A DNA stretch of 64,000 bases, taken from assembly GCA_008632985.1 (NCBI GenBank), contig QPGO01000037.1:186001-250000 (forward strand), written 5' to 3'. A program made the translations under genes and the position numbers. The DNA comes from Psammoneis japonica. Lineage: Eukaryota. Below, piece by piece: positions 39,882 to 49,166 of the stretch. The notes under the pieces were generated by a model. It did not search any database. It was given only the letters and a program-made list of their open reading frames with translations, and had not been told where the DNA came from. Positions within the stretch are counted from its first letter, which is position 1; the number at the start of each line of letters is the position of its first letter.

Positions 39882-42800
39882 ATGGACCACGAGATTGCGC
39901 AGGTTAGTGTTAGTGATGGAGTGCTGAATGACACGGTAGAATCGCAAGCAAAAGAAAGAATAATAGCAGATATTAAAGACTATGATGCGTTCGAAGAAGA
40001 AGCCGAAGATGGATTTTCCTCAGAAGATACCGCTCAGAGTAGCACTTGGACCTTTTCAGACAACCTTATTTTACCAGATCCACAGCCAGAAGAAAACACA
40101 ATAGCAAATATCAACCCCTACGCCGCTCAGCAACAGGATGATACTTCCGATGCAAGTGTGCGAGGAGATTTTCCTGAGAACCGAATTCTCCCAATTGCCG
40201 ATGAGTTTGGTCAGCCTTCTCACTACCCTGGCGAGCATGCATCCTATAGATCACAGAAGCAAGCCGAAGAAGTGAATGACTTGGACGCCCCTAGATCAAT
40301 CATTACTGCAGGGTTTGAATCGTTCAAGTACATCTACTCATTAGCGCTACTCGTATTCTCAGTTGTCGTTGTCATGGCGTCAACCTTCTCAAAACAGACA
40401 ACCGCGACACAGGATGCGAACATTCACCCCGCTCTCGCGTTTTTCATCTTTTGGTTCTTGATTTTCTGGCTTGGAATAATGGAAGGAGGACAAGGATGTA
40501 TTGTCGGTCTCAAGTCAGTTGATAAGAGTCTCTATTCTGAGAGTCATCCAAAAACGTTGAAATGCACGAGACTCGCTCACAAGGGAGACAACACCAGACG
40601 GTTCATTGTTGGGCGTCAGTTTATGGTGGTCCTGGTCGTTTTCATTTCCAACTTTATGTCCACCCCCATAGAAGGATCAAGTGTGCTGGGCATGTCAGAG
40701 GGTGCCACAGCCTTTTTCCTTGCATCCGGGCTTGCTCTCACCTTGACGACGATTATGATTGGTCAGCTTTCTGTCCAAATCAATGCCGCAAATTGTATGC
40801 TGGATTTCATCAACAACTACTTCATGGACTTTGCGACGTTTGTGTCGCTTGCAATTGAGTTCTCCGGTGTGATGCATTCGGTCTATCTAGTCCAAACCTT
40901 CTTTTGCTCGATCACTGGCGAGCGCATCGAATCAAATGAAGCTCCAAGAAATGTGCTTCAAAATATTTTCTTCTGGGCCAGGGTATTGCTTTCTACCGCA
41001 CTGCTAGGCTTTGCCTTTGCAGTCACAATAACGGCTCTTTTTGAAGGAAAGACTAGAATGTGGGAAGGCCTCCCGCCTGCCGCATCAGTGGTTATCTTCT
41101 TCTTTTTAATGGGCTTTGTTGGCATCATGGAGGGCATGCAGATTGCACTCTTTGCTTTTACGGACATTCCTACGGAGGCTCTTGAAAAGTCGAGTGTTGC
41201 CAAGAAGAATTGCGACCTAGTATTCAAGGGACAGAATTTGCAAGCAGTTTTGATTGGACGTCAAATCTGCGTTACCTCTTGCATGTTTGTCATTGCTCGA
41301 ATCACTACGCTCGATGTTGACGTTGATACTGAGGAGGATACAATCTTTGGTGTCTCGAATGGCCTACAAGAATTCTTCAACACCGGTTTGCTTGGAGCAG
41401 TCATTACAACGATTGTTGGGTCTTTGGCTTGGCGCGTAGTTGCTACGTCATTCCCGTTGGCTTTCTTGTCCAACCCTCTCACCTTTCTCAGTATCCGGCT
41501 ATGTTTGCTTTTCGAGGCCTCTGGACTATGTTCAGCTTCCTGGGTGCTCGCCCGGCTTACCAAGTTGCTCGTCGGCTTTCAACCTGATGAAGTTTACCTA
41601 AGTGGTGCCGAGCCGCACACCACCCAGCCTGTTACTCGTCGGGACAAGGACATCGACCGCACCTTGGCTGTTATTCGGTATCTGTATTCATTGTTACTGC
41701 TGGTGTTTTCTGTCGTTGTTGTCGTCGCGGCTATATTCTCCGAAAAAACCGTGGGAACCAAGGAGAAAGGCATTCATCCTGTTGCCGCTTTCTTTATCTT
41801 CTGGTTGCTGATGTTTTGGCTTGCAATGATGGAAGGAGGACAAGGTGCACTTGTTGGTCTTCAATCCATCGACAAGGAAGACTATAAAGGTACTCACCCA
41901 CGAACTCTCAGGTGTGCGACCCTTGCTCACAAGGGAGACAATATGGGACGATTTATTGTTGGAAGACAATTTCTTGTCGTCTTGGTGCTCTTCTTTTCGA
42001 ACTTGATGTCTTCCGCTTCGGAAGGGACCACCGTTCTTGGACTACCAGACGCCCTCAACGAAATCTTTTTTGCCAGTGGGATTGCGCTTTTCTTGATTAC
42101 AATCATGATTGGTCAGCTCACCGCACAAATCAACGCCGCATACTGCATGCTTGATTTCATTAACAACTACCTGATGTTGTTTACTACCTATGTTTCCTTG
42201 GGTATTGAATTCTCTGGCTTGTTGCACTCGGTGTACTTGGTGAAATCAATATCATCCAAGGTCACCGGAACCCGTGTTCCTACTAATGAGCCACCAAAGA
42301 GCGTTGCTCAGAGCATATTTTTCTGTGGGCGCATTATCGCCTCCATTCTTATTCTTGGGCTTTCCTTGGCCGTCACCCTCACCGCACTCTATCAAGGCAA
42401 GACAACGGCTTGGGACGGAGTCCCGAAATCCGTTTCTGTCCTTATATTCTTTGTCTTGCTATGCTTTGTTGGCGTGATGGAAGGTATGCAGATCGCGCTC
42501 TTTGCCGTTGTGAACATGGAAGAGGAGAAACAGGAACGCCACTCCATCGCGCATGCCATCTGCAAGTTGGTATTCAGTGGTCAGAACCTTCAAGCTTTTC
42601 TGATAGGTCGTCAGATCTGCGTTACAATTTGCATCTTTGTGATTGCTCGCATAACAACACTTGACGTCGATCTTGCCACCGGGGATACAATCTATGGTGT
42701 AAGCAATGGCATGCAAAGATTTTTCAATACTGGTATTCTTGGCGCAATTATCACAACGATAATTGGTTCGCTGACATGGCGAATAGCCGCTTCGACATTT

Positions 42801-44375
42801 CCCCTAACGTTCTTGTCGAATCCTCTTATCTACCTCATTCTTCGAGTATGCCATGTGGTTGAAGCCTCCGGGTTGTGCTCCGCGTCCTGGCTTCTCGCAC
42901 GCTGGAACAAGCTCTTCGTGAACTATCAACCCGATGAGGTATATCTGGAGGGAGCCGAACCTCATGGAAAGGAACCCGTTACAAAGCGCGACAAGGACAT
43001 TGATGTAACCGTGTCTGCCATCAAATACGGCTGCTCACTTGGTTTACTCATATTTTGTGTTTCGATTGTGATGACCGCAATATTCAGCTCGCAGACAAAC
43101 GTCGCCTTGAACACCCATCCAGCAGTGGCATTCTTCGCTTTCTGGTTCTTGCTGATCTGGCTAGGTATGATGGAAGGCGGCCAAGGGTGCCTTGTAGGTC
43201 TTCAGCTTGTTGAAAAGACACTTTACGTGGAGAGTCATCCTCGGACGTACAAATGTACTACACTTGCGCACAGAGGCAAAAACATGGAACGTTTTATTGT
43301 TGGACGGCAATTCTTAGTCGTCCTTGTTGTGTTCGTCACCAACCTGTGTGGTGCGGCTGTTGAAGATGCTAGTGTACTGGGTCTTTCAGACTCAGTGAAC
43401 CAGATCTTTTTGGCTTCTGGCGTTGCCATAATCCTGACAACGGTTATGGTTGGTCAGCTTGCGGCACAAATCAATGCGGCAAATTGCATGCTGGACTTCA
43501 TCAACAACTATTTCATGCTATTTACAATTTACGTCTCGCTTGCGATTGAATTCTCCGGGCTGCTGCACTCCGTGTACCTTGTCCAAATCTTCTTCGCTAG
43601 GATTGCGAACAAACCAAACGAATCCAACAAGCCGCCGCGCACTAAATGTCAGAATGTCTTCTTCTGTACCAGAACACTACTTTCACTGGTCATTCTCGGC
43701 TTTGCATTTGCCGTGACGCTGAATGCGGTTTTCAAAGGGCTGACAACCATGTGGGATGGTATTCCATCGGCCGTGTCAATTGTATTATTCGTCATTCTCA
43801 TGTGCGCCGCCGGTGTGATGGAGGGCATGCAGATTGCACTCTTTACGGTCGTCAATATGCCGGAAGAAGACATCTCAAAGTCCCCGATTGCCAACAAAAA
43901 CTGCAAACTAGCTTTTACGGGTCGAAACCTTCAGGCGTTCTTAATTGGGCGCCAGATCTGCGTGACTGTTTGCATGTTTGTTGTCGCACGGATTTCAACC
44001 CCCAACGTTGATGTTGACGCAGGAGAAGAAACTATGTTCGGCGTTCCACGAGGCCTCCAGGATTTCTTCAACACTGGCTTACTTGCAGCTGTTATAACGA
44101 CCATTGTAGCTTCTTTGGCCTGGCGTGTAATCGCCTCATCCTTCCCTCTGGCGTTCCTGTCAAATCCACTAATCTATGTCACCATTCGCATATGCTTGGT
44201 AGTTGAGGCGTCGGGTCTCTGTTCCGCTTCATGGCTGCTTGCCTCCGTTCATAAGCAGGTCGCTGGTTTTGATTTTGATGAAGTGTACGTCGGTAACTCA
44301 GAAGGTGTGGAGGAAGGAGAAGCTAAGCAGTCGGAAAGAGATGTAGAGATGGGGTTTGACGTTGTGTACAAATGA
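39882..44375 (+). CDS. SIT: Silicon transporter with three complete SIT units in one ORF (1497 aa)
   Basis: Three repeats, each with MEGGQG, VGRQF, GQL..CMLDFINN, MEGMQIA and IGRQ. Units at ~40315-41600, ~41660-42950 and ~43010-44290. Possible upstream intron 39788-39869. Confidence 0.97.
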   Translation: MDHEIAQVSVSDGVLNDTVESQAKERIIADIKDYDAFEEEAEDGFSSEDTAQSSTWTFSDNLILPDPQPEENTIANINPYAAQQQDDTSDASVRGDFPENRILPIADEFGQPSHYPGEHASYRSQKQAEEVNDLDAPRSIITAGFESFKYIYSLALLVFSVVVVMASTFSKQTTATQDANIHPALAFFIFWFLIFWLGIMEGGQGCIVGLKSVDKSLYSESHPKTLKCTRLAHKGDNTRRFIVGRQFMVVLVVFISNFMSTPIEGSSVLGMSEGATAFFLASGLALTLTTIMIGQLSVQINAANCMLDFINNYFMDFATFVSLAIEFSGVMHSVYLVQTFFCSITGERIESNEAPRNVLQNIFFWARVLLSTALLGFAFAVTITALFEGKTRMWEGLPPAASVVIFFFLMGFVGIMEGMQIALFAFTDIPTEALEKSSVAKKNCDLVFKGQNLQAVLIGRQICVTSCMFVIARITTLDVDVDTEEDTIFGVSNGLQEFFNTGLLGAVITTIVGSLAWRVVATSFPLAFLSNPLTFLSIRLCLLFEASGLCSASWVLARLTKLLVGFQPDEVYLSGAEPHTTQPVTRRDKDIDRTLAVIRYLYSLLLLVFSVVVVVAAIFSEKTVGTKEKGIHPVAAFFIFWLLMFWLAMMEGGQGALVGLQSIDKEDYKGTHPRTLRCATLAHKGDNMGRFIVGRQFLVVLVLFFSNLMSSASEGTTVLGLPDALNEIFFASGIALFLITIMIGQLTAQINAAYCMLDFINNYLMLFTTYVSLGIEFSGLLHSVYLVKSISSKVTGTRVPTNEPPKSVAQSIFFCGRIIASILILGLSLAVTLTALYQGKTTAWDGVPKSVSVLIFFVLLCFVGVMEGMQIALFAVVNMEEEKQERHSIAHAICKLVFSGQNLQAFLIGRQICVTICIFVIARITTLDVDLATGDTIYGVSNGMQRFFNTGILGAIITTIIGSLTWRIAASTFPLTFLSNPLIYLILRVCHVVEASGLCSASWLLARWNKLFVNYQPDEVYLEGAEPHGKEPVTKRDKDIDVTVSAIKYGCSLGLLIFCVSIVMTAIFSSQTNVALNTHPAVAFFAFWFLLIWLGMMEGGQGCLVGLQLVEKTLYVESHPRTYKCTTLAHRGKNMERFIVGRQFLVVLVVFVTNLCGAAVEDASVLGLSDSVNQIFLASGVAIILTTVMVGQLAAQINAANCMLDFINNYFMLFTIYVSLAIEFSGLLHSVYLVQIFFARIANKPNESNKPPRTKCQNVFFCTRTLLSLVILGFAFAVTLNAVFKGLTTMWDGIPSAVSIVLFVILMCAAGVMEGMQIALFTVVNMPEEDISKSPIANKNCKLAFTGRNLQAFLIGRQICVTVCMFVVARISTPNVDVDAGEETMFGVPRGLQDFFNTGLLAAVITTIVASLAWRVIASSFPLAFLSNPLIYVTIRICLVVEASGLCSASWLLASVHKQVAGFDFDEVYVGNSEGVEEGEAKQSERDVEMGFDVVYK

Positions 44376-44490: not shown

Positions 44491-47400
44491 TCACTGTGCA
44501 TCTGACGTTCCCTCGGCACTTCCTTTCTCCATTAGCATGTGCTCCGCAGAGAGCGCCAGATCTTCACTGAGACTTTCCTCCATCCATCCTTCGTGATCAA
44601 GTAGACACCGATGAAGCCGCCACTAAAGGCATCGCGGAAAGTAGCATGACGAATAGCCTTTATTCCAAGTGCAATGGCTTCCTCTTCAGTCATGTCGAAC
44701 CGTCTCTCTGTGTCGAGAATGCCGAGTGCAAACGTACTACCAGAGCCAACAGAAAACAGATCACCGCCGATTCGGACACCAGTGTTGTCCACGTAAAATA
44801 TGCTGGGCCCAGAGTCTTGATCGAATCCCATGATCATCGTTCCGACGGACAAATCAAGAGCTCGATTCTCATATAAGGCGTTTGATAGAATGCGGGACGC
44901 ACGCGCCACTGGCATGCGGCGGCCCTCAGTCAGCTCGTGAAGCATTGCCTCTGCTTTCAGTCTTCGGATCCAAAAGCTACAATCTGCAGCACCTCCTGCC
45001 ATAGTCCCAAGCATGTGGCTGCGAAAGAGGGATGAAGCAAAAGCATCAGTATAATATCATAACTGCAATTGTCACCTTGCTATCGACTGCGGTACGTACT
45101 CATTGATTGGCAAGACCTTCTGCGTTGTTTTCGAGCCCACAAAATTTCCAATACTAGCTCTTGAATCAACCGCCGCAATAATCCCACCTTGGAATATAAA
45201 GGAAAGTGTTGTGGTACCATGGTCAAACTCAAGTGGCGGAGGGGAGACGCTGCCTAGCATGTCGCCTTCACCCCGAAAATCAACATTGATTTCATCATGA
45301 CTTCCTCCTCTGAGATCGTCAAGGGTACTAGGAACGGAAGACGGTCGCGTGGGAATTGTCCGAGGAGAAAAGATCCCATTTGTTCGGTCCACAAAGAATG
45401 CCATTGCAGCTGCGGCGCCCAGTATGAGCCGACCTCGAACATTATTTGAAATCGTACGGCCTGCGCAAGTGTGAGCGCTGCGATTCAGAGTGGTATAATT
45501 ACGCCTCGTACCGGAAGCTGGGCGAACTTGTTTCACAATGTCTCTCACAACTGACGGCCCGCCAGCTTGAGGAACTGCATTTTGTACGCCCTTGAAGGGC
45601 GTAGAAGCCACAACTGGATCTGATCTGCTGCCACCCGTCGGCGACAAAGAACTGGCAACTACAGCTGTAACCGGCGGAGGAACAATGGTTGACGGACCGA
45701 CGCCAACGGATATCTTTCTTATGTCAATACGAGGGGCCGAGGATTCAAAACTATTCCCTATCTGCGAACCGACATAGTTCGATCCATTCATGGGAGCACC
45801 TGCTGATTCGTCTGACGATGCCACAGCCGGAGAAGACGCATTCACAGCTGCCCTGCTATTCGCAGCTGCACCCAAGGGAGATGTAATCTGACCTGCATTT
45901 TTCTGTGCGTTGGAGAAGAAAGGGTCCTTTTCTAGGCGAGCAGGCACTCCATCAAATCGAATATCACGGGCTGAAGGTGTTAGTAGAGCTGCGTCGATTG
46001 GCACCTCAACCTCAAACTTTGCAAAATGTTTGAAAGATGATCCGTCAGGAAGCGTTTTGACACCCTTCAAGGGTCTGACTGAAACTGTTGTTCTACTTGA
46101 CGGAAACTTTAAACCGCCAGTTCCACACAATCCCTCACCGGCTGTAGCCTTTTTCAGAATAGTCTTTCTTGTTTGATCCCAGTTATCCTTTTCCTCTTCT
46201 GTCCAATTTCGGGAAGGACTTGCACCACGTACTGTAACCTCGCCGTCTGAAACAGCAGTGACGAAGCCTTCGATAAAGTATGGGTACCCTATGAATACCG
46301 TGGTGCCAATAAATTCTGGTCCGAGGACAGGAACAGGTGGTAGAAAGCCCTTACTATCAGCCACCTCCAGAATAGCTGTTAGGTATCGGCTTCTCAAACC
46401 AAACACGTTGATGCCTAGTCGTCGACGCGACAGGCTTTGAATGGGAGCGTCTTGAAGCGTCGGGAAACCGGCTTGTGGAGAGACAGCGTCCTTGGCCGGT
46501 AACTTGGGACGAAACCGTTCATTTTCACTCTGTTGCTTCACATCCCATTCCGTCGAATCCAGCGTCTGCATCTTTGCTGTACAAGCCTCAATCATTTTAA
46601 AGTACTTTCGACCTTCTGTGCCGACTCCCATCACATTTTCTTCGACGTAATGGGGATCGTGTGCAAACACAAACGGTTTCCCGATAACGTTCCTTTGCTG
46701 TTCTTCCTCCGACAACATGTCGTTGGTTACAGACGTACGCGATGCATCCAAGAGACGCCGGGAATCAATAAATGGTAAAAGAACAACGGCCTCCCAAGGC
46801 CATCGCTTTCCATTCATATCGACCGTAAACGATCTGGGGTAGAACTCTGCAATCGGTGACGACTTTTCTGTCATAAGCCATCGATACGGCTTTGGCACAA
46901 GATGAGCGTTTGAGGGCGGAAGACATCCCATGAGTTGCTCGAATGGTCGCAGGGGTTCACCTAATTCATCAAAGGAAATCTCATTCAACATTTCGTCAAC
47001 GTCAACTAAATCGCTTAGCATCGGACCTGCGCGAAGGAGGATTTTGGCAGTCACGAGTCAAATACCGACACGAGTTTCCGAACATGGTTAGCGTCTGCCG
47101 TCCTTAAACCGCCACGAGAAACGACAAAACGAACAAACCAATCTCACCGTAATGATAAGGGTAATACCAGTCCCACGACACACAGCCTTCATAGTAGTAC
47201 TTAAGATTCCAAACGAGTCCTTCAATATAAGCTTTCCGAAGCGCCAGATGCTTTTCAGCATCAAAAGGAGTGAATTGGAACTTTCCAAAGTAGTACCGTC
47301 CCTTCAGATCATCTTTATTCACAGAGTCGGAAATCAAGCTCACGGTACTATCAGTTGCGTCATTTGATGGAGCGGAATACTCAAGAAGCTTTGAAAAGAG

Positions 47401-49166
47401 GCCCTTCTCCGGCTCTTCCTGAGCTTCGGGTATAAATGTGTCTGGCGCAAACTCATCCGACAAGACTGGAGCAAAACCATCTTTTCCGGATGCCTGCTCC
47501 TGCACAACAGACTCCAACATTTCAAGATACTCCTCACGGTCCGCCTGCGCTTTGGACTCCAACACAAAGTCACTCGGAATCGTCGACTCTCGATCTAGAG
47601 AATTCAAAAAACAAGCGTCAGGCACAAGCCCGAGGAAGAGACAAGCAAAGCCACCAAGCGTCGTCTATGCATATACGTACTGGCTTTAAGATCTTGTTTT
47701 CTCCATCGTTCGTTATCACGACTGGCGGTCATCTTCTTGTTGTCGTAATACACGGTTTCGTGCGCACCAAGTGTTGTCATGAACTCTTGAAGGCGTTTAC
47801 CCGACACAATTGATCCTGAATCCGTCAAGTAGGGGAGTGGCCCACCCTTTTTCTTTCGCCACCTGGTTCGGAGTTGTTTGTATGTATAAAACAACAAATC
47901 AAAAGCTTCATCGGCAATATCGAGTGCAGGCATGTGCGGCAAAAAGTCGTTCCCTACGAAAAAGGTCATAAACACAAAGTCATCAATGGTTCGTTCCAAG
48001 TCCCACTTGTTTTGGGGAACAACATTTCGAGTCTCGAATTCGAATGCCAAGTAGTCTCTTAAAATACCCATGTGCAGGAATTCAAAATTGTGGTTGTGAA
48101 TGTACCGCGACAAGGCCACGCCGGTTGCCGATGAAAACACATCGCCATCGCTTTCCAGCGTGGCGGCTGCGGACAAGCGTTTTTGTCGTCGTAAATCAAA
48201 CACGACTTCTTCTCGCAACAAGACCAAATTGTGCTCATGTGTGGCCAAACCCAGCATGACCAAATCACCGTCTTGTCCCATGATGCAATGGCGAAGGTTG
48301 GGATGGTACCGTTTTCCAACATGTTGTTCCTTGCGAATAAAGTCCATAATTTTGTGTTCTCCCTCTCCGGGAACGTTGGGACCGGAAAACACAATGGTCA
48401 AGTGTTGCCACTTTGGGTCGTTGGTGAGCTTGTATTTTATGAAATGTTCCAAATGATTGATGCAATTGGTAAAAAAGGGTGTGCCCGGCGTAATTTCATT
48501 GGAACTAAAGGGTGCGCTGCCGTCCGCGTACGCAGAGTCGGACGATATTGGTTCTTCTGTATCTTGCGTTTCAAACGTTCCAGTAAATCGACCAGGTTCC
48601 ACTTCCTCCAAAACACTGTCGGTTTCCTTGGAGTATGAATAGGATATATCATCTTCTCGGATCCTGTCATCACCGTCTTTTAATTTCTTTTCTCGTTCTT
48701 TTGCCAAATGCGCTTCATAGACGGTCCTCTCAATTTCTCCTTCCTTTCCACTACGGTATCGTCTAGAACGTTGCTGATTTAATTTAGCACGAGGTGCGAC
48801 TCCGTCAATCGCCATGTACACCAACTCGGTAGGCTGTGCCATGTCACGAATGATGCGATCGAGATAATAACAAACATTGTTGAAAATTTCGTCATGCGTC
48901 ACGCCCTCTGCATCGCTTCCGTTTTCGTCGTCCTCGTTGTTATTATGACTGCATCCGTGAATAATACCATTCATATCAATGTAGAGACGATCAATGGGTG
49001 GTGCCTTGCTGACGGTTGCCATGGGATCGGGTGGCTCGACGGGATCGGGAGGTGCATGGCCGTCAAAGTGCTCTTGGTAGGTTTCCACGCTTGGAACAAA
49101 CGCCACGCGTTGATTTATTTTGGGATATCGTTCCGATAACCAACGGAAAAACTTTGGGACACCCAT
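44491..49166 (-). CDS. XRN-family 5'-3' exoribonuclease fused in frame to a proteasome beta5-type subunit (~1460 aa)
   Basis: XRN: MGVPKFFRWLSERYP, LYIDMNGIIH, AIDGVAPRAK, GEGEHKI, GQDGDL, GNDFLP, WYYPYHYGP, PFEQLM, WEAVVLLPFID. beta5: HG/TTTL..DSRAS..K..GTMAGGAADC..VGSGS..RDAFSGG. Introns 47680-47595, 47147-47027 and 45099-45019 all keep the phase. Likely 1-bp error near 44570 (track ORF stops at 44532; corrected stop 44491). Confidence 0.85.

Follow-up and report, generated by a model that had tools for sequence, protein, structure and literature searches.

The closest described counterpart of the system reported here is the set of 20S proteasome subunits predicted for the periplastid compartment, the compartment around the chloroplast, in the diatom Phaeodactylum tricornutum. 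In the passages of Moog et al. 2011 (PMC3101018) cited here, these comprise only alpha2, two alpha7, beta2, beta3, beta6 and beta7, of which alpha7-1/2, beta2, beta6 and beta7 were placed in the compartment by green fluorescent protein (GFP) fusions, and no 19S factors were found for it. A 2017 review, in the part cited, also describes diatom periplastid 20S proteasomes without a cap. Since this published list, as cited, has neither the chymotrypsin-like catalytic subunit nor a cap (PMC3101018), the proteolytic capacity of the compartment is unclear. As to targeting, the ASAFind 2.0 paper states in its cited passages that the signal-peptide cleavage motif is retained in periplastid presequences, without Phe or a similar residue at +1, and that these presequences tolerate early acidic residues, unlike stromal ones. 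Here we analysed a stretch of 64,000 nucleotides from Psammoneis japonica (assembly GCA_008632985.1, contig QPGO01000037.1, positions 186,001 to 250,000), hereafter called the window, whose minus strand carries a gene in which an Xrn1-type exoribonuclease and a proteasome beta5 subunit share one open reading frame (ORF).

The feature under study lies in the linker between the two halves. It is real and conserved, and the most fitting description is that of a periplastid-type bipartite presequence stranded in the Xrn1–beta5 fusion ORF. We observed that the open fused frame is widely kept in diatoms, that the signal-like anatomy of the linker is conserved, that the active site of the beta5 half is intact and that this beta5 belongs to a distinct clade. 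We give about an even chance to the reading that the ORF encodes a polyprotein, in which a cytosolic Xrn1-type exoribonuclease is followed by a second, diatom-specific beta5 whose bipartite periplastid presequence is retained mid-ORF. Through the signal-like joint, it is probably the proteasome half alone that reaches the compartment around the chloroplast. A preliminary description of the window had likewise suggested that this could be the periplastid beta5, threaded into the endoplasmic reticulum (ER) from the tail of a cytosolic XRN. That suggestion is partly supported: its sequence-level predictions stood, the hydrophobic region being conserved, and the N-terminal presequences of stand-alone relatives, the predicted pattern at +1 in most relatives and a distinct clade agree with it. 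The presence of 20S subunits in the diatom periplastid compartment, which it had taken as established, is borne out by the cited passages of Moog et al. 2011 (PMC3101018), and beta5 is not on the list given there.

The linker segment and its conservation

Translation of the minus strand over 45072-45560 gave ...NNVRGRLILGAAAAMAFFVDRTNGIFSPRTIPTRPSSVPSTLDDLRGGSHDEINVDFRGEGDMLGSVSPPPLEFDHG/TTTLSF... (here and below a slash marks a cut or junction), which agrees with the linker text quoted in the preliminary description, and the span noted there, 45213..45445, runs exactly from NNV to Thr1. The segment consists of a basic n-region, a hydrophobic h-region, a transit-peptide-like stretch and an acidic propeptide (Table 1). 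Its h-region, LILGAAAAMAFFV, is the most hydrophobic 13-residue Kyte-Doolittle window (KD13 2.49) of the entire 1448-aa product, and with 13 residues it has the length of a signal peptide and not that of a membrane span. The segment begins at residue 1175 of 1448 and not at the N-terminus, where a periplastid bipartite presequence is expected to stand. The N-terminus of the protein itself has no hydrophobic presequence, the highest KD13 among windows starting in the first 28 residues being 0.28. As the preliminary description had foreseen, a search for N-terminal presequences would miss such a beta5, because about 1175 residues precede its signal. Entry of the whole fusion into the ER by an N-terminal signal was considered and is ruled out by the canonical XRN start of the protein, MGVPKFFRWL (a stop lies 3 codons before this Met), together with the KD13 of at most 0.28 there. 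No in-frame Met directly precedes the segment, the nearest upstream one being 118 codons away (about 115 had been estimated earlier). The only nearby in-frame Met lies inside the h-region, at 45404..45402 (MAFFV), and had gone unmentioned.

For the comparison with relatives we pooled the window protein and 240 relatives (241 in all) and left out 87 without the Gly/ThrThrThr junction motif and 42 with fewer than 135 residues before Thr1, which gave an assessed set of 112, that is, the window and 111 database proteins. A 13-residue stretch with a Kyte-Doolittle value of at least 1.8 was noticed 48-107 residues before Thr1 in 109 of the 112, and of at least 2.0 in 104/112; of the three failures, two were diatom proteins, with values of 1.67 and 1.73, and one was a fish protein that does not belong to the clade. 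At least two K/R were present within the 10 residues before the uncharged stretch in every protein of the set (112/112). As a control, the stretch of 300 residues further upstream in the same proteins reached 1.8 in 8/105 and 2.0 in 1/105, and canonical beta5 precursors, obtained by a separate profile search, reached 1.8 in 0/100 with a median of 0.77. We conclude that, at the level of sequence, the linker segment is conserved beyond chance. The preliminary description had named the lack of a conserved hydrophobic segment in orthologues as a result that would speak against it, and this did not arise.

Behind the h-region, an RGG motif was found in 69/112, its median distance to Thr1 being 26 residues, in the form [LIVM]RGG followed by acidic residues. 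In these 69 relatives the part between the h-region and RGG is mildly basic, with medians of 34 residues in length, +2 in net charge and 4.9% in acidic content. The part between RGG and Thr1 carries a net negative charge in 69/69, with medians of 23 residues, a charge of -4, 21% acidic residues and 0 basic residues.

The beta5 half and its relatives

Among the matches listed, the best solved-structure matches to exon 4 of the window were all beta5 or beta5i (best E 1.1e-48). The beta5 of the window has HG/TTT, D17, K33, GSGS and RDAFSGG. Thr1, Asp17, Lys33, the Ser of GSGS and Asp168, which we take to be catalytic residues, are kept in 144/144 rows of the clade, the final Ser of SGG being seen in the window only. 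At the positions that presumably form the chymotrypsin-like S1 pocket, Ala20, Ala49 and Cys52 occur in 144/144 and Met45 in 143/144, and all four are present in the window. These residues mark the beta5 half as a subunit of the active type that is under constraint.

For the beta5 part, identity to the closest relatives is at most 83-86%, and the named rows most like the window are all diatoms. A maximum-likelihood tree of 113 rows was made from one in three of the clade members and one in three of the canonical hits, together with named and a few chosen rows. In it, the 61 rows of the diatom clade are split from all others by a branch with a Shimodaira-Hasegawa-like approximate likelihood ratio test (SH-aLRT) value of 100. 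Canonical sequences lie at a median of 0.5 changes per site from one another, and the stem of the clade measures 0.82; the canonical beta5 compared come from plants, fish, a euglenid, a rhizarian and a metamonad. Within the clade, stand-alone forms are interspersed among fused forms, which turn up in all its parts. ESM Atlas look-ups with a canonical sequence and with exon 4 of the window returned generic proteasome clusters only. Two fish predictions on long tree branches, P0148 and P0250, have the beta5 domain within proteins of 663 and 510 residues that lack XRN domains; probably they are either errors of the gene models or paralogues that have no link with the diatom fusion.

Both XRN and proteasome Pfam domains are found in 101 of the 120 listed relatives longer than 305 residues, 40 of the 101 having the XRN N-terminal domain as well, a count which is the tally of a precomputed Pfam column in a listing biased towards long proteins. 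Fused genome predictions are from Cylindrotheca closterium, Thalassiosira sp. AJA248-18 and Conticribra weissflogii, and transcriptome assemblies gave four fused ORFs, namely P0161, P0198 (name beginning 'Detonul'), P0228 (name beginning 'Skelet') and P0234 (Skeletonema menzelii). Fused ORFs thus exist at the mRNA level in pennate and centric diatoms. An arrangement of two separate genes with abutting frames was also considered and is ruled out by the open fused frame in the 101/120 listed longer relatives and by the transcriptome-assembly ORFs.

In stand-alone members of the clade a segment of this kind forms the N-terminal part, behind a Met, for example in P0079, P0090, P0126 and P0027, the first three being ORFs marked complete in transcriptome assemblies. 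P0027 starts with MARRGSPRQRLVGIGSVGAMAMSAFFF, similar to RGRLILGAAAAMAFFV of the window, and this likeness indicates that the residues before the internal Met of the window belong to the presequence. The unfused P0126 and P0137 are among the nearest relatives of the window in the tree; in both, about 45 residues separate the first Met from the hydrophobic segment, a pattern suggestive of secondary fission or of an alternative first exon.

Possible routes and destinations of the beta5 half

Under the polyprotein reading with an internal periplastid signal, the ribosome would make Xrn1 in the cytosol, and the emerging basic and hydrophobic segment (residues 1175-1190) would be recognised as a signal sequence, with the last ~260 residues being threaded into the chloroplast ER. 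A cut by signal peptidase behind the hydrophobic stretch would then part the two halves, and the transit-like stretch would carry the pre-beta5 over the next membrane into the periplastid compartment. There the transit-like stretch might be trimmed at the conserved RGG, and the acidic propeptide would be lost by the beta5's own Gly-1/Thr1 autolysis upon assembly. In its full form the proposal is more tentative, and we place it somewhat short of an even chance: one mRNA would give rise to a cytosolic RNA-decay enzyme and to the missing catalytic beta5 of the periplastid 20S proteasome, the ORF product being split across the ER membrane by signal peptidase; RGG would be a further processing site in the periplastid compartment, Xrn1 would stay attached to the outermost plastid membrane, if only for a short time, and other 'missing' periplastid subunits might hide likewise, fused behind unrelated genes.

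The same destination could be reached from a shorter mRNA, by way of an internal promoter, an alternative first exon or internal or non-AUG initiation, the long product being a tolerated by-product of a lost XRN stop; we regard this as unlikely. It would agree with the stand-alone relatives that start with Met just before the segment, the complete transcriptome ORFs P0079, P0090 and P0126 included, and with the place of P0126 and P0137 close to the window in the tree. It would also agree with a group of sequences sharing the motif xARRG..PR[QR]R (P0198, P0204, P0206 and others), where Met stands directly before the basic motif in 7/15 and I, L or A in the rest, and where this Met looks like a fossil, retained or optional start codon. 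The window itself, however, has no in-frame AUG from 118 codons upstream to the middle of the h-region, and a start at MAFFV would leave just a 5-residue hydrophobic remnant. Over the relatives as a whole, Met within 25 residues upstream of the segment was found in 51/112 against 34.5% of control windows, a weak enrichment that lies close to chance; because this Met is barely enriched and the window has none before its segment, a conserved internal AUG start is unsupported. A frame kept open over a variable linker in 101/120 listed relatives, in a listing that favours long proteins, is moreover hard to explain without a role for read-through. On the other hand, the product could be a cytosolic polyprotein throughout, its beta5 joining ordinary proteasomes, Gly-1/Thr1 autolysis freeing Xrn1 with the linker, and the h-region acting as a membrane tether or an assembly element, which in our estimate is distinctly unlikely. 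Every beta5 precursor, as a member of the N-terminal nucleophile (Ntn) hydrolases, sheds all that lies N-terminal of Thr1, and this general property counts for such a polyprotein, as do the invariant autolysis residues, the structure matches to beta5 and beta5i, and the fact that the profile-search and cluster matches listed include no named diatom canonical beta5. It is difficult to reconcile with the finding that none of the 100 canonical beta5 precursors has such a hydrophobic stretch, with the textbook N-terminal signal peptide of the stand-alone clade members and with the long stem that sets the clade apart from canonical beta5; a folded extension of ~1170 residues would also be unlikely to fit inside a closing half-proteasome.

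If the signal is real, the beta5 half might still end in the ER lumen, in the chloroplast ER only or in the plastid stroma, destinations which we hold to be very improbable. To our knowledge no other proteasome subunits are known from the ER, the chloroplast ER or the stroma, which counts against them. Periplastid 20S subunits, on the other hand, are documented in the cited passages of Moog et al. 2011 (PMC3101018). The predicted cut sites bear on the same question. Using a crude heuristic of our own for small residues at (-3,-1), applied in place of SignalP or ASAFind and without a control, we noticed a site scoring at least 4 within ~10 residues of the hydrophobic core in 124/127 sequences; the residue at +1 by this heuristic is other than F/W/Y/L in 108/127, which argues against these destinations, and F/W/Y/L in 19/127, which would suit them. 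The first 25 positions of the transit-like stretch have a median of 2 acidic and 2 basic residues, and such early acidic residues again speak against them. Thus, with cut sites predicted by this heuristic, it is partly supported that the linker across relatives fits the periplastid rather than the stromal description in the cited passages of the ASAFind 2.0 paper.

Several points, the crudeness of the cleavage rule among them, weigh against the internal periplastid signal. The best (-3,-1) site of the window, TNG/I with Ile at +1, scores 3.5 by that rule and is among only 3/127 below 4, and an alternative cut in the window, AMA/FF, gives Phe at +1, the stromal pattern, which would favour a destination other than the periplastid compartment. 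The transit-like stretch of the window has no lysine, and lysine occurs in the first 25 residues of only 69/127 relatives; RGG is absent in 43/112. A profile search with 5 canonical sequences gave no named diatom canonical beta5 among the 120 matches listed, and cluster look-ups of 20 canonical-type matches gave Paulinella micropora and Ploeotia vitrea as the sole organism names, with no diatom. If the fused beta5 were the sole beta5 of diatoms, it would have to serve the cytosol. The tree is unrooted, subsampled and made without red algal, cryptophyte or named diatom cytosolic beta5, and is mute on symbiont versus host origin. Even with beta5 added, a periplastid 20S according to the 2011 list as cited (PMC3101018) would be without alpha1, alpha3-6, beta1 and beta4.

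Gene structure and comparison with known systems

The minus-strand ORF at 49166..44532 has 4 exons and 1448 codons and leads from the XRN1 N-terminus into beta5 with no stop between; the spliced coding sequence (CDS) is 4347 nt long and its sole stop is terminal. The three introns were read from the sequence, and the third exon as a whole extends over 47026..45100. The stop-to-stop frame 47057..45072 (661 codons, minus strand) holds the Xrn1 helical and D1 domains (PF17846, PF18332) and, at its end, the start of the proteasome subunit, the frame staying open into PF00227. XRN_N, Xrn1 helical and Xrn1 D1 domains follow one another in order, as in an Xrn1-type exoribonuclease, and full-length fused homologues are collinear with 49166 to 44571 (tblastn of P0128, P0138 and P0130). 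Near 44570 on the minus strand, at the beta5 C-terminus, the frame of the ORF ends ...GWRKVSVKIWRSLRSTC and a stop, and another frame reads SEDLALSAEHML..., like the homologue tail ...GWRKVFSEDLA...; a single-base indel there, either an assembly error or a real frameshift, is probable and would change the last ~20 residues.

Table 1. Features of the Xrn1–beta5 fusion gene, with positions in the window
Feature	Position	Strand	Basis
Exon 1, XRN 5'-3' exonuclease N-terminal domain	47681..49166	-	PF03159 E 5.6e-82; homologue residue 1 aligns to 49166
Intron 1	47680..47595	-	GT-AG, 86 nt
Exon 2, XRN helical domain	47148..47594	-	tblastn of P0128, P0138, P0130; sequence read; open spliced CDS
Intron 2	47147..47027	-	GT-AG, 121 nt
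Exon 3, first part: remaining Xrn1 helical domain, Xrn1 D1, low-complexity tail without stop codon	45438..47026	-	PF17846, PF18332; stop-to-stop ORF
Basic n-region RGR (putative)	45429..45437	-	directly precedes the hydrophobic stretch
h-region LILGAAAAMAFFV (putative), residues 1178-1190 of the 1448-aa product	45390..45428	-	KD13 2.49
Transit-peptide-like stretch DRTNGIFSPRTIPTRPSSVPSTLDDLRGG, LRGG at its end (45314..45303)	45303..45389	-	sequence read
Acidic beta5 propeptide SHDEINVDFRGEGDMLGSVSPPPLEFDHG, ending at Gly-1	45216..45302	-	PPLEFAHG/TTT junction recurs in homologues listed
Thr1 codon of mature beta5	45213..45215	-	sequence read
Mature beta5 start to end of exon 3	45100..45215	-	PF00227; Thr1, Asp17, Lys33 present
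Intron 3, inside beta5 (GTACGT...TTTCGCAG)	45019..45099	-	GT-AG, 81 nt; spliced product ...KVLPINDHMLGTMAGG... agrees with homologues
Exon 4, remaining beta5 and stop codon	44532..45018	-	PF00227 E 1e-35

Downstream of the beta5 gene, the plus strand carries at 39882..44375 an ORF of 1497 residues in which the silicon-transporter domain PF03842 occurs three times in tandem (three stretches that together score 1636.8 bits). It is convergent with the 3' end of the beta5 gene, ~157 bases lying between their stop codons.

No description of an XRN–beta5 fusion or of an internal periplastid signal was found in a literature search with subscription journals largely outside its coverage. In the ASAFind 2.0 supplements the word 'proteasome' occurs 12 times, all in lipid-droplet proteomics rows, and 'XRN' and 'exoribonuclease' 0 times. 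If the internal periplastid signal is true, the fused beta5 would supply a catalytic centre to the periplastid proteasome, and the failure of presequence screens that read the N-terminus to find a beta5 would be explained. It would also be a rare instance, among cellular genes, of a single ORF that supplies two compartments by means of an internal signal, and would mean that organelle proteome predictions in complex-plastid algae can miss proteins fused behind other genes.

The fusion may be compared with four known systems. With the periplastid 20S subunits of P. tricornutum, as far as these are described in the source cited at the outset, it shares the design of extra core subunits with a signal and a transit-like peptide, whereas here the predicted presequence stands behind ~1175 residues of Xrn1. 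With canonical beta5 (PSMB5, yeast Pre2) it shares the PF00227 fold, Thr1/Asp17/Lys33, the S1 pocket and a propeptide ending in Gly-1; it differs in being fused to Xrn1, in forming a separate clade on the 0.82 stem and in having a hydrophobic presequence that is absent from 100/100 canonical precursors. Ubiquitin–ribosomal protein fusions are cellular ORFs that each encode two unrelated proteins, cut post-translationally, with a conserved ...LRGG by the cut. The LRGG of the window resembles this ubiquitin end, but only ~34 residues lie between h-region and RGG here, too few for a ubiquitin fold, and a ubiquitin-like domain before LRGG is thus ruled out. In the flavivirus C-prM and hepatitis C virus core-E1 polyproteins, host signal peptidase splits the chain at internal signal sequences. 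What we propose is alike in giving a cytosolic N-terminal and a lumenal C-terminal product from one ORF, with a cleavage that is here a prediction only; it differs from these viral polyproteins in being encoded by a cellular nuclear gene, in joining two unrelated housekeeping halves and in the extra transit step that would bring the beta5 half to its compartment.

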